Assembly (NCBI GenBank): GCA_049684795.1
Contig: JBAVGL010000332.1
Span: 1 to 56,731, forward strand
Length of the DNA stretch: 56,731 nucleotides
Source of the DNA: Chitinivibrionales bacterium
Lineage (GTDB): Bacteria; Fibrobacterota; Chitinivibrionia; Chitinivibrionales; FEN-1185
Reading direction: 5' to 3'
Positions 512 to 29,381 of the stretch are shown in pieces. The notes beneath the pieces were generated by a model, which did not search any database, was not told the DNA's origin, and saw nothing but the letters and a program-made list of their open reading frames with translations. How positions within the stretch are numbered: the stretch's first letter is position 1; every line of letters begins with the position of its first letter. The position numbers were made by a program, and so were the translations under genes.

Positions 512-535
512 AAGGCCCTCCTTATTTAAATAGGT

Positions 536-1935: not shown

Positions 1936-1937
1936 TA

Positions 1938-8964: not shown

Positions 8965-8966
8965 AG

Positions 8967-9818: not shown

Positions 9819-11905
9819 TTTATTGCCGCCTTGAAACGTTCAAGTTTTCCGGTACGATTTGCTTCTATGAGCATCGACTGTATATTATCAACCGTAGTTG
9901 AGTCCGTATTCCCATAAAAATGAAAATGTGTATCTCCATCACCACCCATGTTTTTTGACTCCGTTTTTGTATTGACCACCGAGTGCGCTGGAAGGAAAAT
10001 GGTTTCATCCTGGTGGACACGGGCGAAACCTCCTGGAGCGTTCTTTGTTCCTGTTGAGAATGAGCTTATGGCTCCTTTTGCTACTTCTCCGATTGCCGAT
10101 ATCCCTGCCGCTTCAGCAGCACCAACAAGAAGACCCCAATATCCCTCAGTCTCTACATTTTGTAAAGTATTTGAAGCTATTGCGGCAAGTTCTTCTTTTT
10201 CAAGAAAATCAACAACCATATCTAATAAATCCTTCATTGCCGATTTCATGGTAAGTTTTCCGGTGGCAAGTCCTTTACCAATTTCTGAACCAAAAGACTC
10301 CCCTAAGTGTACGGATAATTCAGTCATTTTCTCATCGTGTTTTTTCTTTTCTTCCTCCATTTTTTTATCTTCTTCTTCCCATATTTTTCTCTCTTTTTCC
10401 ACTGCTGTTCTTACTGCCTCATCTGATTTATTTTGAGGCTCCATTTTTTTCTTTTTTTCATCAAGATCAAGCGCTGCTTTCTCGGATGTATACTCTTTTG
10501 TCAATAATAGTTGTGCCTGTAAGTGTCCTTCAAGCAATTTATATTCATAGTCATAATTTTTACTTAATTCAATAAGTTTTTTCTGGTCCTCATCTGCGCC
10601 AATTAAATCACCCTTGTTTTTTATTTTATTTATAAGGGTTATTATTTCTTGCTGTCTCTTTACTTCGAGGGACTGCTCAGGGTCTTCACTATCTTCACCA
10701 CCTCCACCACCTTTTTCATTATAGGTAATATTTTTCTTGGTATGAGTTTCGGTGACTCCTTTTGCCATCATTCCCGCAAAGCTTCTTAGTTTATTTTCTG
10801 CAATATCAATGTCCCCACCAGAACTTTTTATAATTGATAGCTCTTGCTGTAAGTTAGCAATAGATGCTTTAGTGGCTTCAATTTCGTTATACTTAGCAAT
10901 AAGTTTTTTATTTTGATAATCCATAAATGGTATATTGCTTAAAACTTGTTGTTTACTATATTCTTCTTGCTGCTGTCCTAATCTATCTTGAGCTTCACCG
11001 AGCTTATCAGTTGCTTGCTCTTGTACCTGTAAAGTAGCTGCTCCAGTTGTACGTAAAGTAGCTAATAGTTGATTAGTAGTTGATAATGCCTCATTCTGTT
11101 TATTTATATTAGATACTATCTCATCTGTTTTACTATGACCTAAAATCCATTCCCATGAGTCCTTTAGTTCAAGAAATTTTTTAGACCAAAAATTTAAAAC
11201 AGGAATAAGCTCATCACCGATTGCTTTGCTTATTTCCTCAATATTTTTTGTCAATTGACCATATTCGCCTTGTGAATCTGATAACGCTTTTGCCTGACCG
11301 CCAAACCTTTCAGTGAGTCCCTTTACAATACTGTCAAGCCGCTCATGGCTCCCAGCTGCCCCTTGCACCGATATACCGAGACCGCGCATTGTAGTGACGT
11401 TTGAATTAAATGTTCGCCCAATTAATGTTGCCGCACTATCAAGGCTACCAGTTTTTACGGCAAGGTCTTCCATTGTTGGAACAAGCATTTTTAACTGCGC
11501 TTCATCCTTTATATAGAAAGCGAGATTTGCTTCACCGCTCGTAAGTTGGTCTTTTTTATAAAGAGTTACTTTGGCATCGGCCTCAGCAATTTTATCTAAC
11601 GCTTCAGACTGAAATCCAAGGGCCTGGGTTAGTTTTGCGGAAGCAAGGGCTCCGGTCTGAAATTCAGCCACCCCTTCCTTTATAAATGAAAACGCCTTTT
11701 CAGCGGCAAATAGTCCAATGATTTTACGGCCAAGATCATCAAGCTTATCCGTAAAGGCATCCGATGCTTTCCCAGCGTCATTAAAATGAGATTCGGCTTT
11801 ATCCCCAAACTCCTCAATCTTATCATTTATGGTATCAAGGTTTTGAGAAACAAAATCTTTTAACCGCGCTTCCATTTCCAGTGCCGGAAGATCAAAATCG
11901 CTCAT
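9815..11905 (-). CDS. Tape measure protein
   Basis: 696-aa ORF. It is long, helical, K/E/Q-rich and coiled-coil-like, has a C-terminal hydrophobic Gly-rich patch (GYWGLLVGAAEAAGISAIGEVAKGAI), and sits after two chaperone-position genes. Confidence 0.85.
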   Translation of the reverse strand: MSDFDLPALEMEARLKDFVSQNLDTINDKIEEFGDKAESHFNDAGKASDAFTDKLDDLGRKIIGLFAAEKAFSFIKEGVAEFQTGALASAKLTQALGFQSEALDKIAEADAKVTLYKKDQLTSGEANLAFYIKDEAQLKMLVPTMEDLAVKTGSLDSAATLIGRTFNSNVTTMRGLGISVQGAAGSHERLDSIVKGLTERFGGQAKALSDSQGEYGQLTKNIEEISKAIGDELIPVLNFWSKKFLELKDSWEWILGHSKTDEIVSNINKQNEALSTTNQLLATLRTTGAATLQVQEQATDKLGEAQDRLGQQQEEYSKQQVLSNIPFMDYQNKKLIAKYNEIEATKASIANLQQELSIIKSSGGDIDIAENKLRSFAGMMAKGVTETHTKKNITYNEKGGGGGEDSEDPEQSLEVKRQQEIITLINKIKNKGDLIGADEDQKKLIELSKNYDYEYKLLEGHLQAQLLLTKEYTSEKAALDLDEKKKKMEPQNKSDEAVRTAVEKERKIWEEEDKKMEEEKKKHDEKMTELSVHLGESFGSEIGKGLATGKLTMKSAMKDLLDMVVDFLEKEELAAIASNTLQNVETEGYWGLLVGAAEAAGISAIGEVAKGAISSFSTGTKNAPGGFARVHQDETIFLPAHSVVNTKTESKNMGGDGDTHFHFYGNTDSTTVDNIQSMLIEANRTGKLERFKAAIK

Positions 11906-12231
11906 ATACCTTTATCCTTATTAAGCAACAATTCATATTCAGCCCTGTACTTATTAAACGCTCGCATTGCCAATAGAAACCGTAATGAAATATTACGTAT
12001 TGCTGGCATCGGTGCGGTTGGAAACTCTGCGGTATGGTATTTGTAAATCATAAAAAATTTATGCACGCTATCAGGAATAAATTTAATCGGACAACTCCAT
12101 AATTTATAATGGATGTTATTTTCAATGTATTCAAATGTCGGTAAATAAACCTTGGCTTTTCCATTGCAGCCCCAAGCATCCTGGAAGTTTTTATTACTAT
12201 CACATTTTGTACACTCATATTTTCCACGCAT
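11902..12231 (-). CDS. Cys-rich protein in the tail-assembly-chaperone position
   Basis: 109-aa ORF with CTKC...C motifs, overlapping the tape measure start by 4 nt. No programmed-frameshift signal was seen. Confidence 0.4.
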   Translation of the reverse strand: MRGKYECTKCDSNKNFQDAWGCNGKAKVYLPTFEYIENNIHYKLWSCPIKFIPDSVHKFFMIYKYHTAEFPTAPMPAIRNISLRFLLAMRAFNKYRAEYELLLNKDKGI

Positions 12232-12254
12232 TGCTCCAGAATTAATACCGGCTG

Positions 12255-12719
12255 CTATTCTAAACCCAACAGCTCGTCTTCATTTAGTGTTGAATGGTTG
12301 TCAATCGCTTTCTGTAACTCAGTTTGTAAACGAGGATGAAAAAGATTAATATATTTTGTCACCGCTTCACCTTTTGCCATTGAAACCGTTTTACCATTTT
12401 CAACGGGAAAGTTTTTGAAAGAAATAAGCCCTTCCTCAAGCGCCGTAATCCGTGCCTTACCGGAATCTATAACAAATTTTCGTCCTTCTTTTTCATCGAT
12501 ATTAAGATAGCCTAAACCGTCTTCTGCTTCAGCAAGTGCTATTCCTCCGCGACTACGCAATATAAACACCGGCCATAATTTTTTAGGTATTTTGTTTTTT
12601 ACGTCTCTATAAAACATAGGAACGTATTTAAACTCCGTTTCAACATCAAATCCAAGCATACCATTTTTTTTGAGTCTTTCCCGTATCTCATCGGTAAGCT
12701 CAATATTTTTTTCTTCCAC
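12255..12719 (-). CDS. Tail assembly chaperone candidate
   Basis: 154-aa ORF with a GTG start preceded by GAAGGAGG. Acidic C-terminus (NEDELLGLE). Positioned between the tail tube and the tape measure. Confidence 0.45.
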   Translation of the reverse strand: MEEKNIELTDEIRERLKKNGMLGFDVETEFKYVPMFYRDVKNKIPKKLWPVFILRSRGGIALAEAEDGLGYLNIDEKEGRKFVIDSGKARITALEEGLISFKNFPVENGKTVSMAKGEAVTKYINLFHPRLQTELQKAIDNHSTLNEDELLGLE

Positions 12720-12821
12720 CGTGTCCTCCTTCAGTTAAAATGCGGAAGGGCTCGGGCAGGAACCGAGGGCACTAAGCTCCTGAAGCGTTTGCTCGTCCCG
12801 AACCGCCGCACATTTTTTTAT

Positions 12822-13811
12822 TTACGATATTGCGCCCTGTAAAATCATAAATTCATCATTACCTAAATTACGTGAAAGCAGGCATTTAACTTCATTTGTC
12901 ACCCGACCTTCACGTTTTCCAGGTTTATTTGACTGTATTACTTGACATTTCGGTGCCGTAATTGTCAATGGGATTCCAGTGGTGCTTGATCCTATCGTCT
13001 CAGAATACGCTCCAGGGGAAGAACCAATACCCATTAAATTACCGTACATATCTTGCGTTGATACTGGCCGTAAAGCGGGATCAAGTTCAAGGGTGGGCGT
13101 CCTATCAATAATACGTGTTCCCTCAAACCCTTGTCCCTTTGTTGGGTCTTTCCATACTTCGAGTTTGTTGCCTACGTCAAGCGTTAATTTATCAAACATC
13201 TGAGAAACACCATACAATGAAGTGGTGCAAGCGAGAACCGCTTGTGGCAATGCCGCATCCCATCCAGTAGGCATGATTTGGTTTGCAAAAGAACGTTCAT
13301 TTACACTTACGAGTACACCGGTAAAATCAAATTGAATTTTCTTAGGGAGACCAACACCGGCCCCGACAAATTTTGCCGTCCCCATACATCCTCGCGCTGC
13401 TACCACCACTTGCAGCGGGGAAATTCCCTCATCCATTTCAACTACTTCAATTGTCATCGGCACATTGAAATAACCACTATGTGGAATCAACGCGCACCCG
13501 GTGGTATTATAAATTGTTTGTTTAAGTCCACAAGCCCGTAGACATTTCCAGTAGTTAGGTGGTGTATAAACATTCGTACCTACACAAACATCCACTTCAA
13601 ATGTGATTTTTATTTTTTGCGTACCCGGAATTTGTAAATCATTTGAAGCGTCCCCGCGAGCAAGTCTTCGTGCATACATTGCCACTTCAGGATCATAATT
13701 TATATTGTATGCCGCTACATTATAATCCGTTGCCGCTAATGTTTCTTGTACGTAAGGAGTGCCTTCAATTTTGCACCCCATAGTACGCTTGATTTCTAAA
13801 AACCCACTCAT
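12822..13811 (-). CDS. Major tail tube protein candidate
   Basis: 329-aa ORF upstream of the chaperone-TMP block. No sheath gene is present. Called by synteny. Confidence 0.6.
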   Translation of the reverse strand: MSGFLEIKRTMGCKIEGTPYVQETLAATDYNVAAYNINYDPEVAMYARRLARGDASNDLQIPGTQKIKITFEVDVCVGTNVYTPPNYWKCLRACGLKQTIYNTTGCALIPHSGYFNVPMTIEVVEMDEGISPLQVVVAARGCMGTAKFVGAGVGLPKKIQFDFTGVLVSVNERSFANQIMPTGWDAALPQAVLACTTSLYGVSQMFDKLTLDVGNKLEVWKDPTKGQGFEGTRIIDRTPTLELDPALRPVSTQDMYGNLMGIGSSPGAYSETIGSSTTGIPLTITAPKCQVIQSNKPGKREGRVTNEVKCLLSRNLGNDEFMILQGAIS

Positions 13812-13841
13812 AAAAGCATCTCCTTATTTATCCAACTACCC

Positions 13842-14348
13842 TCAATAACTTATTTTCATAGGATCGGTAAGCAACTGGCTATACCAAACTTTTAATCTTC
13901 CGACAAAACCGGTTTGTGGTGCATTGGCATTCTGCCCGAATGGTTCCGCACTATGATACATACAGGAAAATGCCGAAGGTACTCCGTTTGAATCCGGTAT
14001 GTTCCAATGTAAACCAAAATATTTTTGTATATCCGCTTTTAAACTGTTTCTTGCTGCCCGTGGATTGTCTTGCACGTTTAAATAACACTCAAATATTAAG
14101 TCGAAGTCATTAAATAGTTTAGCCTGATTTCCTCCGGTCTGCTCATGCGGCCCGTTAGGATTGGCATTTGAGCATGAGTCCATACCTTCATAGATATTTA
14201 CGCAAGGCATTTCGATCATCGCCCCCACTTCAATAGGTGGGCTATATGCATGTAAAATAGTATTATTATAACCGTTTGCTTGTGTGATGGTTGTCAAGCC
14301 GTACTGGGCGGCAGTTATAATATTATCATATACAGAAATAATGCTCAT
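13842..14348 (-). CDS. Tail terminator / tail completion protein candidate
   Basis: 168-aa ORF immediately upstream of the tube gene. Called by position only. Confidence 0.4.
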   Translation of the reverse strand: MSIISVYDNIITAAQYGLTTITQANGYNNTILHAYSPPIEVGAMIEMPCVNIYEGMDSCSNANPNGPHEQTGGNQAKLFNDFDLIFECYLNVQDNPRAARNSLKADIQKYFGLHWNIPDSNGVPSAFSCMYHSAEPFGQNANAPQTGFVGRLKVWYSQLLTDPMKISY

Positions 14349-14524
14349 TTTTTACTCCACAAAGAACGCCTACCATAACTATTACAATATTCCTCATCTA
14401 TATTATGTCCTTGTTTTTCTTGGTATTCTCCCCATTGTTGCGTATGCTGTTTATGTAAAGTATTTTCTTTTTTAGTAAATAAGTTATACAAAAACTTTTT
14501 TATTAAAAAATGATAGTGTTCCAT
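14345..14524 (-). CDS. Small hypothetical protein
   Basis: 59 aa from the internal Met (MEHYHFLIKK). This start avoids overlap with the upstream glycosyltransferase. No motif recognised. Confidence 0.3.
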   Translation of the reverse strand: MEHYHFLIKKFLYNLFTKKENTLHKQHTQQWGEYQEKQGHNIDEEYCNSYGRRSLWSKK

Positions 14525-14538
14525 TTTATCTATTGGGG

Positions 14539-15714
14539 CTACTTGGCACATAATTGATCCTTAAGGTTTTCGATAATGGTTTTTCGCTGGGAAAGAAGGT
14601 ATACATCTTCTGGCCCGTGCTTCAATGCCACTTTGTTGTACCATAAAGCTTGTTCAAGGTCGCCGGTTTTTTGATATAGTCCGGCTAATCTCTGTGCCGG
14701 ATATTCTTCATAGTAGGCTTTATCCTGTAAAGGACCGGTTCCAAATTTCTTGATTATCGCGGCTTTAAATAGTTCCGTAGCCGATTTGGTATCTCCTTCG
14801 GCTATTTTAACATCACCGAGAATAACAAGCGGTTCGGCGTTATCCTGTGATATTGAAAAACATATCCGTAAATATCTTTCAGCAAGTATAGCGGTATCCT
14901 GACAAAGTGAATTTTCTTTTCCGGGTGATTGTTTATACAAAAAGAATTTTGCAAGGAACAAGCAAGCGTCATAGATATTAGATAGATCGTCTTTTAAAGT
15001 ATTCACCATATTGATAATGATAGGGACCGCCGCTGTCCACTGCCCATCCTGAATAAGATCACGCGCAAAGTAAAAGGCATAATGTTTATTTTCAGGATCA
15101 ATAAAATATTCATTCTCAAGTATTTTTAAATTCCTTATTAAACTATCACGTGAAGATTTTTTTGGTAAGTGTACTACGTCAAGGCCCACAAAATCCGCAC
15201 GCTTATGTGTTGACGGTAATATGGTAAGCTGTTCGTGAACAACTCCTTTCCACTTAATACCGGACGCTCGGCGAAACATTCTTTCCCGTGAAAATACATT
15301 CCCGGCCGAACCATCTTTATTAATTGTCAAAACATAAGGAGCGACAAAGTAATCACGGTCAAGGTTTGCAGCGACCACTTCTCTAATTTTCATAAAACAT
15401 ATTTCAATACCTTCAATTGGAATAACATCATCCGAATCCAACCACATAACGTACTCGGAATTTGTTAGTTGTAAAGCCATATTACGAGCACCACCGAAGT
15501 CACCATAAGGATGGTCTTTATCTTCCCACTTGAAGTTCCCTGTTTTATCAGCATATTGATTTATAACTGCTCTTACGTCTTCATCTTTTTCATCCGTGGT
15601 TACGAGCACTATCTCATCGAACAATCTACGCATATCGTAAGACTCAAAGAAGCGCCGGGCAATCGGCCCGTCACCTTTTCCCATTATCATATTTAATGCT
15701 ATCCGTATCATCAT
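14539..15714 (-). CDS. Family-2-like glycosyltransferase with a TPR-like C-terminal half
   Basis: N-terminal GT-A features (IVLVTTDEKDEDV..., YVMWLDSDDVI with a DxD motif). The C-terminal helical repeats resemble TPR. Confidence 0.7.
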   Translation of the reverse strand: MMIRIALNMIMGKGDGPIARRFFESYDMRRLFDEIVLVTTDEKDEDVRAVINQYADKTGNFKWEDKDHPYGDFGGARNMALQLTNSEYVMWLDSDDVIPIEGIEICFMKIREVVAANLDRDYFVAPYVLTINKDGSAGNVFSRERMFRRASGIKWKGVVHEQLTILPSTHKRADFVGLDVVHLPKKSSRDSLIRNLKILENEYFIDPENKHYAFYFARDLIQDGQWTAAVPIIINMVNTLKDDLSNIYDACLFLAKFFLYKQSPGKENSLCQDTAILAERYLRICFSISQDNAEPLVILGDVKIAEGDTKSATELFKAAIIKKFGTGPLQDKAYYEEYPAQRLAGLYQKTGDLEQALWYNKVALKHGPEDVYLLSQRKTIIENLKDQLCAK

Positions 15715-15720
15715 GCCCTC

Positions 15721-16638
15721 CTAAATAAATTCTGAATTTTTAATTGTCTTTGCATTATGTATAAGTAAATTAATTTCATTATTTTTACAACAAATTTGAC
15801 AATCTTTTTTTACAGGTAAAAACTCCGGCATTTTTCTACAAATATTATCAAAAGAACTTTTATATATATTTCCTAAATTGTAAATAGGATCATGCCTCAT
15901 ATACATACATACATCAATATTACCATTTTCCCATATCATTGATGAAAAATGAAATCCTTCACATCGTGTATAACCACGTTCTATTTTTTTACAGTCAGAA
16001 AATTTCCAGTCAAGAGCTACTAACTTTTCATCTTGAATATTTGACTGTTTGATTTGTGTAGGAACTCCCATAATATTTAAAGCCGGTCGGATTTGAACGT
16101 ACTCTAAATTATATTTATATGCAATTTCAATCGCTTTTTTTATTTCATCATCCTGAAAATCACTACTATAATTAATTGCTATACCAACCTGCTTACAAGA
16201 TTCTGAAATTATTTTAATATTGTTAACCGGAAAATCCTTATCTGTTTTTGTTATCCGAATCCATTCTAAAAAAGAAGGTTCATATTTAATCGGTGCTAAT
16301 GCGTTTGTAAACATACCTTGCTTTAAAATAGTACGTTTATTAACTCGTTTTATACCCCAATCTATTTCAGGATGCAATGAAGGTTCACCACCCCCAGACC
16401 AAGTAACAGATTTTAAACTTAATTCCGAACCTTGACATAAAAAATCAATTAAAGATGACATATTAATAAAATCATCTTTTTTATTTCTGTCATATTTATA
16501 AAAACAACAAGGACAGTTTGCATTACAAAGACTTGTCGGAGACACTTCAATACTTAGCATTGTAAGTAAAGTTTCATCACTCAAATATTGAATAAACTCT
16601 TTATGCTTTGCTAATTTTATACATGGATTAAATATCAT
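15721..16638 (-). CDS. Radical SAM enzyme (possible SPASM-like C-terminal Cys cluster)
   Basis: CNANCPCC is a CX3CX2C motif, followed by WSGGGEPSLHPEI. C-terminal cysteines are CEGF...VCMY...CQICC. Start set at MIFNPC, preceded by GGAGGA. Confidence 0.8.
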   Translation of the reverse strand: MIFNPCIKLAKHKEFIQYLSDETLLTMLSIEVSPTSLCNANCPCCFYKYDRNKKDDFINMSSLIDFLCQGSELSLKSVTWSGGGEPSLHPEIDWGIKRVNKRTILKQGMFTNALAPIKYEPSFLEWIRITKTDKDFPVNNIKIISESCKQVGIAINYSSDFQDDEIKKAIEIAYKYNLEYVQIRPALNIMGVPTQIKQSNIQDEKLVALDWKFSDCKKIERGYTRCEGFHFSSMIWENGNIDVCMYMRHDPIYNLGNIYKSSFDNICRKMPEFLPVKKDCQICCKNNEINLLIHNAKTIKNSEFI

Positions 16639-16655
16639 TGTGTCCTCCAATAAAT

Positions 16656-17231
16656 TTAGGTATTCTGAGCGTGAATATTAGATACTCGTTTAAAGACAGC
16701 AAGCTCAATAGCCTGATCAACTAATTGCCAGTCGCAATCATTTTGGATAACTGGACGAAGATAACAAGATTTACCATTTATCCAATCGTGGCAAATAAGA
16801 TACTTACCTACTGATATATAAGGCCTAAATAAAGTAAAGTCATAAACCATTTTTATTGAAGATGCCCCACCATCAAGAAAAACTATGTCTGGTTTATTTA
16901 TTTTAGGAAGTAACGTTGAAAAAATTTCCTCAGAATCACCAAAATTAAAATTAATATACTGTTTTAATCCAATAAGATCATTGGCACTATTATACAGGTT
17001 TAATGCATAGTCATAAAGTTCTTGGTTATTTTCACAAGTATACAAAGTACCTTTTCCTATATTTCTAAGAGCACTTGAAATAAAGTATGTTGATCCTCCT
17101 CCACGTGCCGTACCTACTTCACAAACAGAAACAGGTTTTTCTTGCATTACTACATTGTAAAGCAATTCTCTCTCAAGTGGGTTCATCTGACCTTCAAACC
17201 GGTCACGCTCAAAATTTGGTACTCTTAACAT
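16656..17231 (-). CDS. Class I SAM-dependent methyltransferase
   Basis: VCEVGTARGGGSTYF is a motif I-like Gly-rich loop. IVFLDGG is a post-I/II acidic strand, as in small O-methyltransferases. Confidence 0.65.
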   Translation of the reverse strand: MLRVPNFERDRFEGQMNPLERELLYNVVMQEKPVSVCEVGTARGGGSTYFISSALRNIGKGTLYTCENNQELYDYALNLYNSANDLIGLKQYINFNFGDSEEIFSTLLPKINKPDIVFLDGGASSIKMVYDFTLFRPYISVGKYLICHDWINGKSCYLRPVIQNDCDWQLVDQAIELAVFKRVSNIHAQNT

Positions 17232-17254
17232 TATGCCCTCCTATTATTAAAGTT

Positions 17255-18001
17255 TTACATACAATCAAATGCATATTTAGCCATCCTATTTATTTTAAAT
17301 CCGGCATTACTTATACCACAAACAAAATGAGCAAGACAAATATTTCTTATGTCCGGTTCATGCTGAGGGTCAACCATCTGTATAAACGGATAAGCAAACG
17401 TTGTTTCTAATCTGTTTGCCTTCCATGCGCAATAATTAAATGCCGGTTGTTCGTGTGTTTCTCCATCTGGTTTATCAGTATATAGTTTATATGCACTTTT
17501 TAGTACATTAAGATTTTCTCTTATTGGTCTAAATCCAAGAACTCCGGCATTAACACCCCATTGATTTGATTTTTCTAACTCTATTTTATCTTGCTCACTA
17601 AAATATTTTTTTCCATGGTAGTTACTATCTTTTATAGGCATTTCAGGAGAACCAGTAATTCCCTCCCCGATTACACCAAAAAGATTATATACACTCTTAA
17701 AAAATATAGTATCAACGTTAAGATATAAAACTTTATCATATCTAATAATATCAGGAAAATTGCTTTCAACTGATAAACCAAAAGGTGAAAACTTATCCCA
17801 TGTAGCACCATTTTCAGGAAAGTTAATTACTTTAAACTTATCTCTATTTTTTATACTAATAAATGCGTTTTCAGGGAATGCCGAAAAAACAATATAATCT
17901 CCACTATATTCTCCCCGTTTTAGTAAAGTTTGAAAGCAGAGATTAAATAGTTGTAAATATCCGTAATCTCCTCCAATAGTACTATAAATTAAAGTTTTCA
18001 C
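17255..18001 (-). CDS. GT8-like nucleotide-sugar glycosyltransferase
   Basis: VLYLNVDTIFF is DxD-like. GVNAGVLGF resembles the GT8 N.GV motif. Confidence 0.55.
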   Translation of the reverse strand: MKTLIYSTIGGDYGYLQLFNLCFQTLLKRGEYSGDYIVFSAFPENAFISIKNRDKFKVINFPENGATWDKFSPFGLSVESNFPDIIRYDKVLYLNVDTIFFKSVYNLFGVIGEGITGSPEMPIKDSNYHGKKYFSEQDKIELEKSNQWGVNAGVLGFRPIRENLNVLKSAYKLYTDKPDGETHEQPAFNYCAWKANRLETTFAYPFIQMVDPQHEPDIRNICLAHFVCGISNAGFKINRMAKYAFDCM

Positions 18002-18831
18002 TCATTGCCCTCCAGTAAAAGTTTTTTATCCTCCGCTATTATATTTAACCAATATGATAGTGTCAATTTTTCGTAGTTCCATTTCCTCGCTTGATATTCA
18101 TTCCATATAATATTTAAAAGCTCTTCGGTTATAACGGACCAATCTTCAACAATGAGGATCGGCAGATCACAAAAAGACTGCGTAAGAACACTACGCTTGA
18201 CAATAGGAATGCTACCCATATACAGGGCCTCCCATGTCCGGTGACAATCAATGCCGTTGCCTGGAGGAGAGAGGACAAACTTATGGTTATAACAATTAGC
18301 AATAAAATCTTTGAAAGATTGCCCGTGCGGCTTCCATGTACACCATGCCTGTTTTTGAAAATGCTCCGTAACATAGTCCCGCTCCCCGTGATTATTGTTT
18401 GCATTATGGTTCATGTAAACAAGATTTTTATATTCCCGTTTTGTTTTCCAGCATTCAACAAGAACCGTAGCATCGCTTGAATATCCTCCTCCCAGCGGTC
18501 GCTCCATCCCGGAAGGTATAGGTATTAAGTGTCTATCAAGCAATGATACATTTAATCCATACCACTTAACTATACAAGGAGGACGTATGTCAAAGTTTCC
18601 CTTTCCAATTGGGAAATCTGAGTTATGCGTAATGAGTATATAATTATTATTGCTATTAATTAAAATTTCAAACAACATAAAGATGTAATCAGTTTTACAG
18701 AATACGACCGCGCTATTATTTAGTAAATAATCGGCCTGTTGATATGTTGGTTCTCCATCAATAATGACATCCGCCGCCTTCCGAAATTTATCCCCGTGAA
18801 TTACTTCATTTAACATATTAAATGAATACAT
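17998..18831 (-). CDS. Exostosin (GT47)-like glycosyltransferase
   Basis: FVLSPPGNGIDCHRTWEALYMGSIPIV matches the exostosin-family C-terminal motif. Confidence 0.6.
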   Translation of the reverse strand: MYSFNMLNEVIHGDKFRKAADVIIDGEPTYQQADYLLNNSAVVFCKTDYIFMLFEILINSNNNYILITHNSDFPIGKGNFDIRPPCIVKWYGLNVSLLDRHLIPIPSGMERPLGGGYSSDATVLVECWKTKREYKNLVYMNHNANNNHGERDYVTEHFQKQAWCTWKPHGQSFKDFIANCYNHKFVLSPPGNGIDCHRTWEALYMGSIPIVKRSVLTQSFCDLPILIVEDWSVITEELLNIIWNEYQARKWNYEKLTLSYWLNIIAEDKKLLLEGNE

Positions 18832-18914
18832 CGTAAAAGCCCCCGTTTAAATCGTTTTGACCCTGTTTTGATAAATATCATTCATTTTTTATTATAATCA
18901 ACCCTACACCTTAT

Positions 18915-20390
18915 TTAAGCGGTTAAAGCTTGATTATATTCGGGTTTTATTTTGGCGTTTTCAAAAATCATGCCCGATTTATCAAACCAGCTATTTTTTG
19001 CCGTTATTTCACGCGCTAATTTTGTATCCCTGGAAAGGAGTTTAAATCCCGCTTCTTCCATAACATCTATCCAATATAATGGTCCTTTACAATTAACATG
19101 ATGCCATCCATCCTGTCCCGGCATTGCGTGAGTCATGGCAACATACTTTCCATTTTGTAAAGTCTTAATCAAATTAGGAAGAAATTTTTCTTCAATATGT
19201 TCCACTACTTCGCAGCACCAAATTAGATCAGCGGGACTTGATAATACGAAAGGCGTTTTTGTTAAGTCACAAACGAAACAATCCTTTAACCCAAGGCTAT
19301 GGCATTTTTGAATGTTCTGATCAAGACCATCGATGCCGATTACTTTTGCATCATGTTCTAAAAACCACCGCGTTGAATATCCTTCACCACAACCAACATC
19401 TAAAACGGTTTTAATATTATACTTCTCAATAAGCCAGTGCCAAAGCGCTGGGAAGAAAGTTCCTGGGTCTCCTCCGCCGTAGTTTCCACCGAGATGCTGT
19501 TGGTCTTTATCTATCACATAGTCAAACGCTTTTGCATATTTACTATTTACTATTTTTTCAAGTATTGTGAATTTAGACCCTTCCTCAATTTCCGAGTCCC
19601 ATTTATTATGCCAATGCCATGAGAAAGCACCCATAAAAAGTTTTTCACTATCGGAACCCTTTTTAAAAGGGTGTGCAGATTCTCCCATGTTGATATACAA
19701 CTGCCATTCAGTATTGAAAAATGCACAAGGAAATACGGTCCAATTTTTATTTATCTTTCTCACTTCCGCGTAAAGGGAAGAACCCCAGTCGGTAGAGTTA
19801 AAACCGGCAGGCATTTTCTTTACCATCTCAAGGCAGTCAATTGATAACTGAGAACCTTTGAACATCCGCATTATTGCACCATTGATTTTGTCAAGTTCGG
19901 TTCCCCACTGATACATAAACTCCTGTTCAAGCAACGGAGCGAGGTCACGCATAAGAACAAGATCGCAGTCGCAATAAACGCCACCGTATTTATACAGGAT
20001 TAACAAACGAAACAAATCTCCACCGAGCCAATTGTTGTCATCATCCCGGTTGAGCAGCCGCCAATTTTCCAGTGGAGTTCCTATGGCCTCTTTTATTGGG
20101 TCATATAAACGAAAATCGATATGCCGTAAAATTGGTTGTAGTAATTCGTTTTTTGTTAAGTCAACGTTTGACCAAAGAACAATACGCACATTTTCAAGGT
20201 TCTGGGTCACTATCGCTGACTTCAACGCAAGTAATGGTTTCCGGTTAAACAGTCTCGGTTCCCTCCAATAAAAATGTATCAATGTTTTATTAGGGTAAAC
20301 GGAATTAGGTATTGATTTACAATACTCAAATGCCTCGTTACCGTCTTGGTACAAAACGTTACCTGCTTCAAAATCAAATATGTCTATCAT
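18915..20390 (-). CDS. Fusion protein: GT32/Caps_synth-like glycosyltransferase plus SAM methyltransferase
   Basis: N-half has FRLLILYKYGGVYCDCDLV (a DXD glycosyltransferase motif). C-half has VLDVGCGEGYSTRWF...VIGIDG (methyltransferase motif I). Confidence 0.7.
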   Translation of the reverse strand: MIDIFDFEAGNVLYQDGNEAFEYCKSIPNSVYPNKTLIHFYWREPRLFNRKPLLALKSAIVTQNLENVRIVLWSNVDLTKNELLQPILRHIDFRLYDPIKEAIGTPLENWRLLNRDDDNNWLGGDLFRLLILYKYGGVYCDCDLVLMRDLAPLLEQEFMYQWGTELDKINGAIMRMFKGSQLSIDCLEMVKKMPAGFNSTDWGSSLYAEVRKINKNWTVFPCAFFNTEWQLYINMGESAHPFKKGSDSEKLFMGAFSWHWHNKWDSEIEEGSKFTILEKIVNSKYAKAFDYVIDKDQQHLGGNYGGGDPGTFFPALWHWLIEKYNIKTVLDVGCGEGYSTRWFLEHDAKVIGIDGLDQNIQKCHSLGLKDCFVCDLTKTPFVLSSPADLIWCCEVVEHIEEKFLPNLIKTLQNGKYVAMTHAMPGQDGWHHVNCKGPLYWIDVMEEAGFKLLSRDTKLAREITAKNSWFDKSGMIFENAKIKPEYNQALTA

Positions 20391-21474
20391 CTTGTACCCT
20401 CTTTATAAGATTGTTCCATTTTAGATATGTATGTTGTTTTTTCTCAGCGTTGAAATTTCGCATGTTATTACTTACTGCTTGTAAATCAGTATGCAGGGCT
20501 TTATAAATCAATTCTTCAAAGCAGTCAAAGTAAATAATATGCGGCATAGACATCGGATTATAGTAGTCGGAGTATTGCATCCAGTTTTTTACTACGTCAT
20601 AGTTATTAAAATCATTCGGATCACCCATTTTTACCATGTTCATATCCTGCATACAAATAACCGAACCCGGAGGGCGACCAAAGGTTGAGTTCCACGATGT
20701 TTGCTCAAGAACCCTGTATTCTTTTCCTTTTTTGTAAAGCTCTATTAAAAAATCAAGAGACGGACAGAATATAGGAATATTTGCCGCGTAATGTTCAAAG
20801 GTTGACATAGTAGAAACGTTATACGGGAAATGCACTACCCCTGAATAATCGGCGACCGTTTGCCATGCGTGACCAAAAGGCAGTGTACTATTTTTATGTT
20901 TAAACATCGTGCCGTTAAACTCATCAAACGGTTTTGCACTATAAACCAAAAATTCCGTCCGCTTCGGGGAATACTTCGCTCCCGTATATTCACATAGTGA
21001 AGGAATCCATTCCACGGGACGGTCAAGAAATGCTTCCGTATACATTTTATCATACAGATTGTTCGCTACAAGATAGATTTTATTTTTGTCAACACCATCT
21101 TGTAAATATGAATTAAAATCCTTCCAATCCTCCGCCGAAGATTGGCAAGGGTATTCATATCGGATGGGAATATCGATGATAATAGGACGAGTATAACGCC
21201 GATATAAATAACTAAATATAGGAGGATAACAGCAAAGAAATGCATCATAGGTTTCAAGCTCCGTATAAGTTTCAAAAAATTCATCCCATGCCTTACGCTG
21301 AACGAACCCGCACCAATTGTTTCCGTCAAGCATTGGGATGCTATCTTGTTTTCGGTTCATTATTACCGCATGCCCACTGAGACACACATCTTCAATCGTA
21401 TGTCCAATATCCCCGAAAATTTTCTTTAGATCAGCTACTACAGAAATATGCTGATCAATGTTAAAAAATTTCAT
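20374..21474 (-). CDS. Hypothetical protein of the glycan island (possible GT-B-like enzyme)
   Basis: 366-aa ORF with 17-nt overlap onto the downstream gene. Only weak resemblance to a GT-B C-terminal region (FEHYAANIPIF). Confidence 0.45.
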   Translation of the reverse strand: MKFFNIDQHISVVADLKKIFGDIGHTIEDVCLSGHAVIMNRKQDSIPMLDGNNWCGFVQRKAWDEFFETYTELETYDAFLCCYPPIFSYLYRRYTRPIIIDIPIRYEYPCQSSAEDWKDFNSYLQDGVDKNKIYLVANNLYDKMYTEAFLDRPVEWIPSLCEYTGAKYSPKRTEFLVYSAKPFDEFNGTMFKHKNSTLPFGHAWQTVADYSGVVHFPYNVSTMSTFEHYAANIPIFCPSLDFLIELYKKGKEYRVLEQTSWNSTFGRPPGSVICMQDMNMVKMGDPNDFNNYDVVKNWMQYSDYYNPMSMPHIIYFDCFEELIYKALHTDLQAVSNNMRNFNAEKKQHTYLKWNNLIKRVQDDRHI

Positions 21475-21489
21475 GCCCTCATCTCCTTG

Positions 21490-22056
21490 TTAAAGATTTT
21501 CACAAAACATTTTTTCACACGGACGTAAGTTATAAAGGTAGTAATAAATTGGGTCATCTATTAGAACTTCTGTTTTTAGAAATGGTTTTATTTCCTCACT
21601 AAACTGCTTGTCTTCCCCGAATGAAGAAAACTCATTAAACATAACCTTTTTTACTATACTACGTTTAATAGGATTCAAATGATTTGGCGTTCTCCAATAT
21701 TCACATCCGGAGGTATACCATCCCGTTGACTCAATAGTATGGAAAAATCTACGCGGACAGTTTCCATTGACAAGCATCACGCCTTGAATACCTACACAAT
21801 CCGGACCCATTGATAATGCGGCAAGAATATGAGAAATATAATTTTTACTTACTAAATCATCATCGTCTACAAAACACACATATTCACCTTTTGCACCACC
21901 AATTAGCCTATTACGTTTACATCCGATAGTAATGCTTTCTTCTTCGTTTGAAATAATTTGAACTTCATTAGTACACTGCCCTAAAAGCAATCTGAAAAGT
22001 CGTTCAAACTTTTCCTTACGCTGGGGAAGAGTACAAATAAGGATTGATAGTTTCAT
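21490..22056 (-). CDS. Family 2 glycosyltransferase
   Basis: LSILICTLPQRKEKFERL and YVCFVDDDDLV are classic GT2 motifs. Start set at MKLSIL, with ATGA overlap onto the upstream stop. Confidence 0.75.
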   Translation of the reverse strand: MKLSILICTLPQRKEKFERLFRLLLGQCTNEVQIISNEEESITIGCKRNRLIGGAKGEYVCFVDDDDLVSKNYISHILAALSMGPDCVGIQGVMLVNGNCPRRFFHTIESTGWYTSGCEYWRTPNHLNPIKRSIVKKVMFNEFSSFGEDKQFSEEIKPFLKTEVLIDDPIYYYLYNLRPCEKMFCENL

Positions 22057-22790
22057 ACGGGTGACCACTCCCCATAACCAATGGAAATTAAATTTCCTGC
22101 AACTATTGAGGCGTACACTTGCGCGTATTTATGCATGTAGTCGTTATTAGCTGCCTGCTGCAATGGGATAAGGCGTTGAAAGGTATTGTCAAAATCCTTA
22201 TTAATTCCCGTTGAGTGATAGTGATGAATAATAACATCATTAATGTAATGCTTTGTTTGTGTAAGTTCTCCGATATGAAACCATACTACATCTATCATAT
22301 CCGCTTTATACATCGGACACATAAACGGTTTTCCAGTACCGTCAATAAACCTTTTGGTGACAAACAAGTTAACGCATAACCGGTCATGCGCTATGTATCC
22401 GTCATCACACCAGAAAACTCCAACACCCTTATACTCATTTATTTTATTAAGAATCTTTGTATCATATCCTCTTGTTTCAAAAACCATATCGTCCCCAAGC
22501 ATCGAAGCAATAAAATCCCTACCACCTTCCAGTTTAGTTACTTCGTTATACATCATATTAAAATATAATGAAAGATCTGGTTGTACGGTTTTTTCTTCTA
22601 CTACAAATATAGGTAAGGTGAGTCTGATTGAATTTATATACTCAAATGTTTTAGTATCTTTTTTATTTATGCAGATGCAAAACTGGATATTATTTACGTC
22701 ATCCGCCATCGCTACCGCGGAGTCAATAAGACGCTTCAACCATTCAACACGTTTAAATGTAGGAACCATGAGCCAAATTTTATTATACAT
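22053..22790 (-). CDS. GT-A fold glycosyltransferase-like protein
   Basis: IWLMVPTFKRVEWLKRLIDS and MLGDDMVF (DD motif) resemble GT2-type enzymes. Confidence 0.55.
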   Translation of the reverse strand: MYNKIWLMVPTFKRVEWLKRLIDSAVAMADDVNNIQFCICINKKDTKTFEYINSIRLTLPIFVVEEKTVQPDLSLYFNMMYNEVTKLEGGRDFIASMLGDDMVFETRGYDTKILNKINEYKGVGVFWCDDGYIAHDRLCVNLFVTKRFIDGTGKPFMCPMYKADMIDVVWFHIGELTQTKHYINDVIIHHYHSTGINKDFDNTFQRLIPLQQAANNDYMHKYAQVYASIVAGNLISIGYGEWSPV

Positions 22791-23481
22791 TGTGCACCTC
22801 TTCTACTTCACATCGGTCGGCGTCTTTATCGTGGAAAACCATCCCCACATAACCATCCCGTTTAAGCTTTATAGTTAATGGTCTTTCCCTACCTGTAAAG
22901 TTAAAATAATTATCGTGAGCGATATGACATTTTTCGATGAATGGCCAAATTATATTACCAAGGAATATTTGATCCGTCCCATGATATATACCACGGGGAT
23001 TTTTACTATCCGGTTTTATTTCTTTTATCCATCCGTCCATAAGGAGTTTAAAATGTGGGATTATTCCAGCGACTGAACCCCACATACCGCCACATATACG
23101 AATATTATGCTCATTATTATCACGGATGATATGAAAAAGAAGTTTACTTTCTTCCCATTCCTTGACCGCCTGCGCTTCTCGCATGTTAAGGCGTGAGTCC
23201 GTATCCCGTACTATAAAACGTTCAATTGTTGGATCATCAAACATTGGCTCAAAGCGCCAATATAACCCCATACAGTCATTAGATTCCGGTTTGTGAATTA
23301 TTTCCATCCCAAGATCATATAATTCAGCGAGCGTTATCCTGGGTACTAAAGGATCAACGTAAAATCTTCCAACCCAACCAGGATAGATTTTTGGAATAAG
23401 TCTTGCATTTTCTACCGCCCCATGGCAGTAGCCTTCATTGTTTCCCCAAACGGAAAACGATATTACTTTTTTGTTTTTCAT
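22783..23481 (-). CDS. Putative glycosyltransferase (DxD-type)
   Basis: 232-aa ORF. VISFSVWGNN...YCHGAVENA and FIVRDTDSR resemble small sugar-transferase families. Low certainty. Confidence 0.45.
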   Translation of the reverse strand: MKNKKVISFSVWGNNEGYCHGAVENARLIPKIYPGWVGRFYVDPLVPRITLAELYDLGMEIIHKPESNDCMGLYWRFEPMFDDPTIERFIVRDTDSRLNMREAQAVKEWEESKLLFHIIRDNNEHNIRICGGMWGSVAGIIPHFKLLMDGWIKEIKPDSKNPRGIYHGTDQIFLGNIIWPFIEKCHIAHDNYFNFTGRERPLTIKLKRDGYVGMVFHDKDADRCEVEEVHNV

Positions 23482-27267: not shown

Positions 27268-28944
27268 TTAAAATTTCCTTATCTCAAACTTCACGCCCTC
27301 TAATGCTTCCTTATAAAAGTCTTTATTCTTACCGTCTGTTTTCCGAGTGCCGTCGCTGGTGGAGGACTTGGATTTAAACGTATCAAAATCGGACTTTAAA
27401 AGGTCAATTTTTTTATTCACCGCGTCAACATCTTTTGTTACCAGTTCTTCAACTCCCGTCATGTCAACGCTTACCTGTATATGCTGTTGCTTGTTAAACT
27501 TTGCATCCAACCACGCCTTTGCGCCTTCCTTGGTCATCGGAACCGGGGAATCATTATCAGGTTGCGGTTCGGCGTCAAAGGCTTTTCCACGTAATGCCAT
27601 TATCATATTTTTTACATGAGGCATAGCGCACTTGTGGTGATCATCAAGTATAGCTTTTGCATTTTTAGTTATCGCCTCTTCGTCATCATCCGATTTTTTT
27701 GCATCAAAAGCATGCTCGTGTATTTCGTTAAGCATTCCTCGGTGCAATGTTTCCACTCCCGTATAGGCGAGTTCTAGCATAGTACGCGCTGCTATTGATT
27801 TGTTAACTGACATACCGTTCCCCTTTTGTATATACAATTCGGGGAACATGCCCTTCAATTGTTCCTCCGAGTATGATTTATTTTCTGGTGCTTCTTCCCC
27901 GAACTCTTTTAAATGTCGTGCAAGATGTGAGTGCACTCCTGATTTATCGCCCTCCGGCATATCAACACCGCCGCGCCCACCAAGTAGAGCGTTCATGGCG
28001 GCACGCACACCATTATACACAGTGTGGTATCCTTCTTTTTGGTGGTGTGGTAATTTATATGATGACTTAATATCTGGCTTTGTTGCATCATACCAGGCAC
28101 ACATTATCTTAAGATCTTTAGGTTCTGCTTTTGCTCGTTCAGCAGGACCGTCCCATGCTGTTTCTTTCGATGCCTTTGAGTGCTCGGCGTAAGGAATAAC
28201 TGCCTTGTCCTTAATACCAATATCGATTTTAGGAAAAGTAAATACCGTTTGCTTTTTTCCGATGATAAGCTCCGAAAACATATCCACCAAATTTTCTTCC
28301 ATCCATTTAAAGCGTGCGAGAAGATCAAAGTCATCTCTGTCAAATTCAACTGATTTGGTCATAGCATCTACAACAGATTTAACGCTATTGGGATTCATTG
28401 GAATGCCACAAGGGGAAAATTCCAAGTAGTCCCATTTTTTGTATTCGGTTCCTGTTTTTCCTAAACCTATACGTGACCTCTCCGCATTATCTACCGGGGA
28501 ATTAGCCCCGCCCACTGCTGGGAGGAACCCGATTGAGCACGCTGGGAGAAAATTTGAGACAGCGAATTTATACACTAAATCAGAACGTCCCGAAGAATCT
28601 ACTCGACTGTCGAGAAACAGCGCCTCCGCCGGGATTGATTTGCTGACCGTATCAACTCCAATACGTAAAGCAGCGCCAACAGGGAAGTTATCATGCTGGT
28701 GACAAAACATAACCACGGGATTTTTGGGATAGTAAGAATCAAAATTAGCGCCTGCAACTCGCACAATATCACCAGCGCGGTCAGGAGTTTCGTCCGCCGT
28801 CGCCGGGTAATGTATAACTCGCTGCTCATACCCATCTAAGTACTCCTTCCCTATCATATCACACAAAGCCTTGCACTCATCGGGGGTCATAGACGTCTTT
28901 GACGTTTTTGCCGCGTTAACTCTTTTTAACAATGCGGTAGGCAT
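27268..28944 (-). CDS. Prohead serine protease (S78/HK97-type) fused to a scaffold-like C-terminal region
   Basis: N-part KNPVVMFCHQHDNFPVGAA and ACSIGFLP resemble the S78 His and Ser motifs. The middle carries a YKLPHH...LLGGRGG motif. The C-part is K/D/E-rich and helical. Confidence 0.7.
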   Translation of the reverse strand: MPTALLKRVNAAKTSKTSMTPDECKALCDMIGKEYLDGYEQRVIHYPATADETPDRAGDIVRVAGANFDSYYPKNPVVMFCHQHDNFPVGAALRIGVDTVSKSIPAEALFLDSRVDSSGRSDLVYKFAVSNFLPACSIGFLPAVGGANSPVDNAERSRIGLGKTGTEYKKWDYLEFSPCGIPMNPNSVKSVVDAMTKSVEFDRDDFDLLARFKWMEENLVDMFSELIIGKKQTVFTFPKIDIGIKDKAVIPYAEHSKASKETAWDGPAERAKAEPKDLKIMCAWYDATKPDIKSSYKLPHHQKEGYHTVYNGVRAAMNALLGGRGGVDMPEGDKSGVHSHLARHLKEFGEEAPENKSYSEEQLKGMFPELYIQKGNGMSVNKSIAARTMLELAYTGVETLHRGMLNEIHEHAFDAKKSDDDEEAITKNAKAILDDHHKCAMPHVKNMIMALRGKAFDAEPQPDNDSPVPMTKEGAKAWLDAKFNKQQHIQVSVDMTGVEELVTKDVDAVNKKIDLLKSDFDTFKSKSSTSDGTRKTDGKNKDFYKEALEGVKFEIRKF

Positions 28945-28946
28945 GA

Positions 28947-29381
28947 TTATTTTCCTCGCTTTACGTTTAATACTACCATGAGGTCATTTTCGTGCCCCTG
29001 CTCATCTTCCAATATTGATTGAATAAGTTCCATAGTTCCAAACTCACCTAATCCCATAGATTGGGTAACTCGTTCGGTATATCGTTTAATGGCCGTTTGT
29101 TCGGATTGAATATCATACGTCAACATTTGAGTAGAGTCGTGGGAAGTAAGGGTAATATCGGAAACCGCCACCGGAATCCCACCAAGGTAATTGATATGGT
29201 CGGAAATTAAAACAGCGTGATCGTGCTCGTCATCGGCGTGCTTCCTGAGCTCTTCGGCTACATTCAACATCGCCGGACCCGTCAAGCATGCCGCATGCTG
29301 AATATATTGTATCATCGCTTGGTACTCTTTCGCCAAGTCGATGTTAAGCTCATTGATTAGGTCTTGCAGTGTAAAGGACAT
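28947..29381 (-). CDS. Ferritin-like / bacterioferritin-like di-iron protein
   Basis: 144 aa. Aligns by eye along its whole length with bacterioferritin, including AKEYQ, ADDEHDHA, IQSEQTA and EDEQGHEND (the E, ExxH, E, ExxH ligand pattern). Confidence 0.75.
   Translation of the reverse strand: MSFTLQDLINELNIDLAKEYQAMIQYIQHAACLTGPAMLNVAEELRKHADDEHDHAVLISDHINYLGGIPVAVSDITLTSHDSTQMLTYDIQSEQTAIKRYTERVTQSMGLGEFGTMELIQSILEDEQGHENDLMVVLNVKRGK

Follow-up and report, generated by a model that had tools for sequence, protein, structure and literature searches.

An island of ten open reading frames (ORFs), named p1 to p10 here, was found on the minus strand at 14539-23481 of the contig JBAVGL010000332.1, between the capsid gene and the tail-tube gene. 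The contig comes from an assembly labelled as a Chitinivibrionales bacterium (GCA_049684795.1); its whole stretch of 56,731 nucleotides was analyzed and is called the window hereafter, and it is the genome of a novel, uncultured tailed phage. In total, eight glycosyltransferase (GT)-like domains are encoded in the island, of which six are well supported and two weakly so, together with two S-adenosylmethionine (SAM) methyltransferase domains and one radical-SAM enzyme. On balance, it is probable that these enzymes form a cytoplasmic pathway of the phage by which one or more virion proteins receive a complex oligosaccharide with partial O-methylation. I propose to regard the island as a hypervariable "virion serotype" locus.

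As shown in Table 1, the ten genes are tightly packed. A preliminary description of the window, made from the sequence alone, had pointed to ten co-oriented genes inside the late structural operon, and the ORF list bears this out. The gaps between the genes range from -17 to +83 nt, so that the genes abut or overlap on one strand, and the capsid and tube genes lie contiguously on the same strand. All of the four start/stop overlaps named there (22783/22790, 22053/22056, 20374/20390, and 17998/18001) are present. The overlap of p2 and p3 is an ATGA, provided that p3 starts at the ATG at 22056. Every sequence motif named in that description was found in the translations, and the island is indeed more AT-rich than its flanks, with a GC content of 0.361 versus 0.438 for the head module and 0.404 for the tail module. 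Within the island, p9 (0.281) and p7 (0.311) have the lowest GC. The reported lack of transmembrane segments in p1-p10 also holds, since no 19-residue window exceeds 1.6 on the Kyte-Doolittle scale; the single one reaching 1.60 includes K, D, and E. In agreement with the reported lack of a flippase or polymerase, no priming phosphoglycosyl transferase, flippase, polymerase, or ligase was found by Pfam in the island or in any phage relative examined. The region from 12 to 25 kb of the window gave no match in a megablast search against 50,697 GenBank phage records, and looking up the exact sequences of p5 and p9 in the assembly collection returned no record.

Table 1. Genes of the island and of the surrounding late operon, with positions in the window
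Feature	Position	Strand	Basis or remark
p1, 232 aa, GT-A-fold glycosyltransferase (predicted), motifs RDTDS, GGMWG, DQ.FL	22783-23481	-	AlphaFold2 (AF2) and Foldseek
p2, 245 aa, probable glycosyltransferase (weak support)	22053-22790	-	phrog_14945 "glycosyltransferase", E 5e-18
p3, 192 aa, GT2-family glycosyltransferase, FVDDDD motif	21490-22068	-	Glycos_transf_2, phrog_14775
p4, 366 aa, GT-B-fold glycosyltransferase (predicted), uncharacterised family	20374-21474	-	AF2 and Foldseek
p5, 491 aa, fusion of GT32-type DXD transferase and class I SAM methyltransferase	18915-20390	-	Pfam
p6, 277 aa, GT114 (A075L-like) inverting GT-B glycosyltransferase	17998-18831	-	phmmer against PDB
p7, 248 aa, GT8-like (weak support), accessory gene	17255-18001	-	Pfam, under cut-off
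p8, 191 aa, Methyltransf_24 SAM methyltransferase	16656-17231	-	Pfam, 47 bits
p9, 309 aa, radical-SAM enzyme, variable gene	15721-16650	-	Motif and weak profile matches
p10, 391 aa, GT2 catalytic domain and TPR-like C-terminal domain	14539-15714	-	Pfam, NCBIfam, PDB
Large terminase	31968-33434	-	Upstream in late operon; profile-confirmed
Portal with Mu F-like domain	29582-31753	-	Profile-confirmed
144-aa gene between portal and 558-aa head gene	28947-29381	-	94% identical to L032 gene
558-aa head-module protein	27268-28944	-	Weak PHROG matches to protease and head proteins
Major capsid protein (MCP), 462 aa	25877-27265	-	phrog_617 and phrog_10 major head protein, E ~1e-31
Two genes, 162 aa and 280 aa	23487-24817	-	Head completion/head-tail joining by position only
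AT-rich spacer, 190 bp, GC ~0.29	14349-14538	-	Between p10 and 168-aa gene
168-aa gene	13842-14348	-	Directly downstream of island; tail terminator/completion by position only
Tail tube protein, 329 aa	12822-13811	-	tblastn match to annotated tail tube proteins
Chaperone-like gene pair, 696-aa tape-measure-like gene, and large tail genes	After tube gene		Assigned by order only

What could be the acceptor of the glycan? The p10 protein has a GT2 domain with a DxD motif (36.9 bits in Pfam) followed by a helical, TPR-like architecture, which is reflected in weak matches to ANAPC3 and TPR_19; the p10 homologues bear TPR_1, TPR_2, or TPR_12. Its best sequence matches in the PDB are SunS (7msp, 1.3e-9), the Listeria flagellin GT GmaR (4e-8), and a SunS-like protein (7msk), and the alignment to SunS covers residues 31-261. 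The best NCBIfam match is the SunS-family peptide S-glycosyltransferase (TIGR04195), with 43.6 bits. A p10 homologue was found in every island-bearing relative, where it usually abuts or overlaps the 168-aa gene preceding the tube gene. p10 is the conserved anchor of the locus. Near p10, no glycocin precursor gene and no export or maturation gene was found; there is only a non-conserved 68-aa ORF, with no transporter or oxidoreductase.

The p6 protein had been described as exostosin/GT47-like. Rather, it is a genuine homologue of A075L and a member of the GT114 family. A075L is the beta-xylosyltransferase for the N-glycan core of the chlorovirus PBCV-1 capsid and the founding member of CAZy GT114, having been moved out of GT47/exostosin by reclassification (PMC11571054). 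A phmmer search of the PDB with p6 returned A075L (8avq, 8asa, and 8q8i) with an E value of 1e-38 and 136.6 bits. Residues 61-267 of p6 align to residues 64-279 of A075L with 38% identity over 207 positions, while the first 60 residues are unaligned. The catalytic base Asp73 and the donor-binding residues Asn148, Arg158, and Arg208 of A075L (PMC11571054) correspond to D72, N141, R151, and R198 of p6. Ser72 and Asn202 of A075L are likewise conserved in p6, which also matches Pfam RXYLT1_C. In a tblastn search of the GenBank phages, p6 matched only an uncultured 642-kb megaphage and a marine single-cell virus.

Is the island a recent arrival? Relatives of the phage were recovered by scans of IMG/VR and assembly collections and were labelled L001 and so on. 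Three of them (L001, L002, and L004) are the same phage as the window. In all relatives examined whose tube protein is at least 39% identical (L003/L010, L011, L012/L065, L014, L015, L032, L033, L057, L059, L060, L067, and L068), the island is at the same position, and the locus is present in relatives down to 32-39% identity of the capsid protein. Phages with only a distant tube homologue have no island; the cultured Rhodobacter phage RcWaterboi has five small genes (~1.9 kb) between its capsid and tube genes, and L070 is alike.

The content of the locus varies from 3 to about 15 genes among the relatives. The ten-gene form was found in L032 and in L060, a partial contig which shows p6-p10 only. 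A core of eight genes (p1-p6, p8, and p10), in which p7 and p9 are missing, was found in L003/L010, L011, L012/L013/L065, L014, and L015; the L011 contig starts within p4, so that only p4-p10 are visible, and the L014 and L015 islands have extra genes. L033, whose MCP is 32% identical to that of the window, has about 15 genes including a DegT aminotransferase, a Methyltransf_21 enzyme, a GT1-like enzyme, and two radical-SAM enzymes. The L057/L058 islands encode Methyltransf_24, DegT, and a radical-SAM enzyme, and the L059 island encodes a radical-SAM enzyme and a protein with a faint sulfotransferase match. The L067 island has a UDP-GlcNAc 2-epimerase, methyltransferases, and a p6 homologue, while the L068 island consists of p10 and two genes without assigned function. 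As side observations, L067 genes at 4516-5304 and 1169-2167 encode a Methyltransf_16 enzyme (a protein-lysine methyltransferase family) and the UDP-GlcNAc 2-epimerase, respectively, and L015 has a 391-aa right-handed beta-helix protein (14812-15987) directly after the p10 homologue.

Mosaicism among the close relatives is seen when L032 is compared with the window. The flanking genes are 94-97% identical and p10 is 94% identical, whereas p3, p7, p8, and p9 are only 69-79% identical. The p7 gene is confined to the window, L004, L032, and L060, and p9 homologues were found in L032, L060, and L033. Thus, p10 follows the structural backbone while the other genes of the island are swapped. The preliminary description had taken the AT-richness as a sign that the block was acquired as a unit. 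Recent block acquisition was rejected because the locus was found in every relative checked. Since the island is at the same place throughout the lineage and its content is mosaic, the locus is an old, fixed, and hypervariable feature of the lineage anchored by p10. The two genes of lowest GC, p7 and p9, are the only ones that look as if they were added later.

The other enzymes were assigned by profile search (p3, p5, and p8, as well as p6 and p10), by predicted structure (p1 and p4), or by PHROG (p2). No match was found for p1 in Pfam, NCBIfam, or the PDB sequences, even with an alignment profile. An AF2 model of p1 based on a 48-sequence alignment had a predicted local distance difference test score (pLDDT) of 95.9. 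Foldseek searches of the PDB with this model returned the Skp1 alpha-galactosyltransferase 6mw5 (2e-6), PBCV-1 A64R 2p6w (6e-6), and glycogenin, and those of BFVD returned giant-virus and uncultured-phage proteins with template modeling (TM) scores of 0.72-0.80. Thus, p1 is predicted to have a GT-A fold, and the nearest solved structures are retaining enzymes. The p4 protein, which had been left without assignment, gave no family or PDB match in Pfam, PHROG, NCBIfam, or the PDB sequences, again with an alignment profile included. Its AF2 model (pLDDT 95.6) resembles CalG4 (5e-6), plant UDP-glycosyltransferases, SpnG, the GT4 enzyme tll1591, and SdgB in a Foldseek search of the PDB, so that p4 is predicted to be an additional GT-B-fold enzyme. 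The more than 458 homologues of p1 and about 150 homologues of p4 are all labelled "hypothetical". At least seven GT-like proteins had been counted before; the folds or families of most of them were confirmed, and the count becomes eight with p4.

The p3 protein matches Pfam Glycos_transf_2 with 27.3 bits, above the cut-off, and phrog_14775 with an E value of 3e-33. The p5 protein has a Gly_transf_sug domain (37 bits, residues ~19-287) followed by a Methyltransf_11/25/12/23 domain (residues ~296-480). In larger viral contigs (L016 at 9998-11479, L018, L019, L020, and L028), the two halves of p5 are separate adjacent genes, in the order of methyltransferase and GT32, which argues for a functional link between them. 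The two SAM methyltransferase domains noted before were both confirmed, one in the C-terminal half of p5 and the other in p8. Weak matches to RMNT_CmcI (Pfam) and to a rhamnosyl O-methyltransferase (NCBIfam) weakly suggest that p8 resembles sugar (rhamnosyl) O-methyltransferases.

The assignments of p2, p7, and p9 are weaker. The p2 protein has conserved GDDM and CDDG motifs; neither its sequence nor its alignment profile had a meaningful match in Pfam or the PDB, and hhalign gave no relationship with the p1 and p3 profiles. The GT8-like character ascribed to p7 is reflected in a Glyco_transf_8 match, which falls under the Pfam cut-off (20.7 versus 24.3 bits), and the p7 sequence had no match in the PDB. 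Similarly, the CX3CX2C motif of a radical-SAM enzyme is present in p9 as CNANCPCC, together with a Cys-rich C-terminus, while the Pfam Radical_SAM score is under the cut-off (24.3 versus 29.5 bits). A phrog_1802 match and weak NCBIfam matches to radical-SAM maturase, MoaA, and viperin models (35 bits at best) were also found for p9.

Some of these enzymes are found in other viruses. A sub-cassette of p3, p1, p4, a methyltransferase, GT32, a second p1-like gene, and p6 exists in viral contigs of 65-333 kb, where its neighbors are genes for a cytidylyltransferase, NeuB, GDP-mannose 4,6-dehydratase, and epimerases. In the 333-kb viral contig L016, more than 20 co-oriented sugar-metabolism genes lie around the shared cassette (70-16460), including those for a CMP-sugar cytidylyltransferase, NeuB, GDP-mannose 4,6-dehydratase, epimerases, and a GT2 enzyme. 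GT32 homologues were found in giant-virus metagenome-assembled genomes, and the p1 and p5 families occur also in giant-virus genomes. No p4 homologue was found by tblastn among the 50,697 GenBank phages.

The observed gene content, folds, homologies, position, and mosaicism lead me to infer the acceptor, the order of the reactions, and the sugars as follows. p10 would recognize a folded or assembling acceptor protein and add the first sugar to Ser, Thr, or Cys. p1, p2, p3, p4, the N-terminal half of p5, p6, and, in this phage, p7 would then extend and branch the glycan. The donors may be nucleotide sugars of the host, since the island of the window has no gene for a sugar-activating enzyme. 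Methylation of the sugars would fall to p8 and to the methyltransferase half of p5, and p9 might modify a sugar. The pathway would be expressed together with the late structural genes. Finally, the initiating enzyme would be inherited with the structural module, while the elaborating enzymes would be exchanged by recombination.

A virion protein is the preferred acceptor because the position is fixed inside the morphogenesis operon, because p10 is passed on together with the structural genes whereas the elaborating ones are exchanged, because the nearest characterized relatives of p10 (SunS and GmaR) act on proteins or peptides, and because p6 is homologous to the capsid-glycan enzyme A075L. 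The likeness of p10 to SunS/GmaR and that of p6 to A075L thus support and strengthen the idea of a protein acceptor. It is further backed by the absence of the membrane components of lipid-carrier pathways from the phage and its relatives, and by the precedent of mycobacteriophages. Candidate glycosylation sites may be present in the MCP. A Ser/Thr-rich stretch at residues ~408-425, NETGPTGTSTTSTTTSS, has an N-x-T motif at its start, and an ETxxANW tail at the C-terminus is kept among the island-bearing phages and was not seen in the island-less L009. Both of them vary between the window and L032. The Ser/Thr loop is fairly Ser/Thr-rich in island-less relatives too; thus, it was rejected as proof of glycosylation.

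A bolder form of this reading is somewhat less probable. A vertically inherited SunS/GmaR-like primer and a swappable set of up to ~15 enzymes, some of which also occur in giant viruses of algae and protists and which include the A075L/GT114 homologue, might together build a complex methylated glycan on a structural protein in a widespread, uncultured, siphophage-like lineage, from a locus between its head and tail genes. This might be the most elaborate self-glycosylation of a small phage and an evolutionary bridge to the chlorovirus type of capsid glycosylation.

Several points weigh against a virion glycan. Cargo genes ("morons") often insert at head-tail junctions, and position is not function. 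Soluble GTs can act on undecaprenyl-linked acceptors. The 43.6 bits of p10 are far under the equivalog cut-off of TIGR04195 (350 bits); thus, p10 is a relative of protein-directed GTs and not an orthologue or family member of SunS. In p6, the acceptor-contact residue His122 of A075L is replaced by Tyr, and Thr112 falls in a gap. The fold match of p1 to A64R does not discriminate between acceptors, because GT-A enzymes of DNA-hypermodifying phages also have A64R as their top PDB match. p2, p7, and p9 are weakly assigned. In addition, bacterial homologues of p4 and p8 (30-41% identity) reside in classical Wzx/Wzy surface-polysaccharide clusters. The p4 homologue of Terracidiphilus neighbors a Polysacc_synt_3 flippase and GT4 enzymes, while that of a Desulfobacterota genome neighbors Wzy_C, GT4, GDP-mannose dehydratase, a p8-like methyltransferase, and a radical-SAM/SPASM gene. 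Thus, the ancestry of the island enzymes clearly lies in lipid-linked polysaccharide pathways. A tie of homologous islands to flippase or polymerase genes, which the preliminary description had named as a sign of host surface polysaccharide synthesis, was found for these distant bacterial homologues but in none of the phage relatives.

This bacterial neighborhood makes remodelling of the host envelope the main rival, although an unlikely one. The soluble GTs would act on undecaprenyl-linked intermediates of O-antigen, capsule, or teichoic acid, or on other host glycoconjugates, with the priming enzyme, flippase, and polymerase supplied by the host, for example to block superinfection or to avoid re-adsorption to debris. 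The p1/p3/p4/p5/p6 cassette beside NeuB, cytidylyltransferase, and GDP-mannose dehydratase in the large viral contigs fits this idea, as do the p4 neighborhoods, and the lack of transmembrane segments does not exclude it since soluble or peripheral GTs are the usual type in lipid-linked pathways. On the other hand, a priming transferase, flippase, polymerase, or Gtr-type membrane protein was found in no phage relative; the anchor gene p10 resembles protein or peptide GTs rather than GTs of lipid-linked pathways; and the locus is fixed in the late structural operon, with p10 co-inherited with the tail genes. Classical lysogenic conversion is not indicated because there is no integrase among the ORFs tested.

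The substrates of the closest characterized relatives of p10, which are a bacteriocin precursor for SunS and flagellin for GmaR, could also be taken to indicate a target other than the virion, such as a host protein (flagellin, pilin, or receptor), a non-structural phage protein, or a glycocin-type secreted glycopeptide. Radical-SAM enzymes and methyltransferases are typical of peptide natural-product clusters, and there is a 68-aa ORF after p10. I regard this as improbable, since most relatives have neither the 68-aa ORF nor p9, genes for a transporter, leader protease, or immunity are missing, seven or eight GTs are far beyond the needs of single-sugar glycocins, and the constant neighbors of the locus are structural genes. 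A cluster for a glycocin or another ribosomally synthesized and post-translationally modified peptide was rejected for the non-conserved small ORF and p9, the missing transporter, and the excess of GTs. Still less probable is hypermodification of the phage DNA with an oligosaccharide on a hydroxymethylated base, by which restriction would be evaded. It is true that GT-A and GT-B enzymes of phages are known to place mono- to trisaccharides on 5-hydroxymethylcytosine, that such clusters can adjoin structural genes and have GT-A enzymes resembling A64R (bioRxiv 10.1101/2023.12.21.572611), and that the window encodes DNA methyltransferases. One of these is of the N6/N4 type by Pfam, however, and the other is recognized by PHROG only. 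Among every listed ORF of at least 186 aa outside the structural region, there is no thymidylate-synthase-type hydroxymethylase, recognizable C5-methyltransferase, or TET/5mYOX dioxygenase. A distance of 17 kb separates the island from the genes for replication and modification, p10 and p6 speak for glycans linked to protein, and eight GTs exceed any known DNA glycan. Glycosylation of the phage genome is thus unsupported.

As for the surroundings of the island, a promoter and terminator scan gave no more signals than shuffled sequence did, and it detected no intergenic terminator at either border of the island. The 3′ end of p6 (18038-18066, minus strand) includes a perfect sigma-70 consensus (TTGACA, 17-nt spacer, TATAAT; 12/12), which precedes the GTG start codon of p7 by ~35 nt. 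This may be a promoter of the moron type which arrived with p7, or a chance match. The 162-aa and 280-aa genes upstream of the island are kept in the relatives, and the downstream 168-aa gene stays adjacent to the p10 homologue there; these three proteins gave no match in Pfam, PHROG, or a tblastn search of the GenBank phages. The 68-aa ORF (14345-14551) in the AT-rich spacer is partly kept only in L032, and the spacer itself is absent from L003 and L012, in which p10 and the next gene overlap. The tube protein is 27% identical, with 95% coverage, to the tube proteins of RcWaterboi and of Agrobacterium phage JP1, and its homologues have weak or faint Phage_tube_2 matches.

In the head module, the L032 counterpart of the 144-aa gene has a Pfam Ferritin match, suggesting a ferritin/Dps-like protein. 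The 558-aa protein shares only 72-76% identity with its counterparts in L001 and L032, versus 89-99% for the neighboring genes there, and its gene is a second locally hypervariable structural gene. Outside the late operon, a 787-aa SNF2-type helicase fused to an N6/N4 DNA methyltransferase is encoded at 43877-46240 (minus strand), and a second DNA methyltransferase at ~39885-40754. Including p9, this 57-kb phage has three radical-SAM-like genes (15721-16650, 40534-41631, and 42938-43807). The latter two are in the replication module, beside the DNA methyltransferases; the gene at 40534-41631 is 49% identical to a "radical SAM domain-containing protein" of Bacteroides phage Versailles, and that at 42938-43807 matches phrog_9298. 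Versailles was rejected as a relative since only the one radical-SAM gene of the replication module is in common.

It was not until 2023 that phage virions were shown to be glycosylated, and this was in actinobacteriophages, whose cassettes have up to four genes. If a virion glycan is indeed made, environmental phages outside Actinobacteria devote ~16% of their 57 kb to a glycan coat, which would be under diversifying selection like bacterial O-antigens and would have part of its enzymology in common with the capsid glycosylation of giant viruses. This would bear on phage stability, adsorption, and recognition by hosts, grazers, and immune systems, as well as on the engineering of glycan-shielded therapeutic phages. 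In addition, p6 broadens GT114 to include tailed phages, and the p1 and p4 families, labelled "hypothetical" so far, gain a testable role.

How does the island compare with known systems? In mycobacteriophages, the capsid and tail-tube subunits bear glycans whose synthesis depends on GT and O-methyltransferase genes of the phage (Freeman et al. 2023, as described in PMC11600133 and PMC12619734). The glycans are located at the C-termini of the subunits, and cluster O phages have three GT genes and one O-methyltransferase gene (PMC11600133, PMC12619734). Thus, the cassettes are not limited to one or two genes as the preliminary description had stated, but reach three GTs and an O-methyltransferase (PMC11600133). 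The island resembles the systems of Che8, Corndog, and clusters O/F in that soluble GTs and an O-methyltransferase are encoded by the phage. The GT genes of the island are co-oriented and contiguous with the capsid and tube genes, as fits expression with virion genes. The glycans on capsid and tube were demonstrated there, whereas the same outcome is proposed here. Moreover, up to three tandem GT genes and one O-methyltransferase contrast with eight GT-like domains, two methyltransferase domains, and a radical-SAM enzyme; unlike the mycobacteriophage genes, the island has its place between head-completion and tail genes and shows hypervariability throughout a lineage. In tblastn searches of the 50,697 GenBank phages with p10, p6, and p4 (other island genes were not searched), no actinobacteriophage match was found.

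The capsid N-glycan machinery of PBCV-1 includes A064R, A075L, and A111/114R (PMC11571054, PMC7826918, PMC9614988). Like the island, it consists of virus-encoded, soluble, cytoplasmic GTs with fused or companion methyltransferases, and produces a methylated glycan on the major capsid protein. p6 is the homologue of A075L, with the catalytic residues kept, and the predicted fold of p1 resembles domain 1 of A64R. In contrast, PBCV-1 is a eukaryotic giant virus rather than a 57-kb tailed phage, only p6 is demonstrably homologous, and the SunS/GmaR-like initiator suggests O- or S-linkage instead of N-linkage. SunS and GmaR share with p10 a GT2 domain followed by a TPR-like helical domain, and are cytoplasmic enzymes which act directly on a polypeptide. 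Unlike the SunS system, the island has no genes for a precursor peptide, transporter, or thiol-disulfide enzymes, but a multi-enzyme elongation set. The Wzx/Wzy clusters have a similarly variable set of GT, sugar methyltransferase, and sugar-modifying genes, with hypervariability by gene swapping, while the island lacks membrane proteins and is embedded in a virion morphogenesis operon. No island of this scale (~9 kb, eight GT-like domains) is known so far from small phages. Provided that a virion protein is the acceptor, the island represents a new variant of phage virion glycosylation, which differs from the known system in its unrelated enzymes, in having about twice the GTs of the largest known phage cassette, in its conserved insertion point between head and tail genes, in its O-antigen-like hypervariability, and in its direct homologue of A075L.

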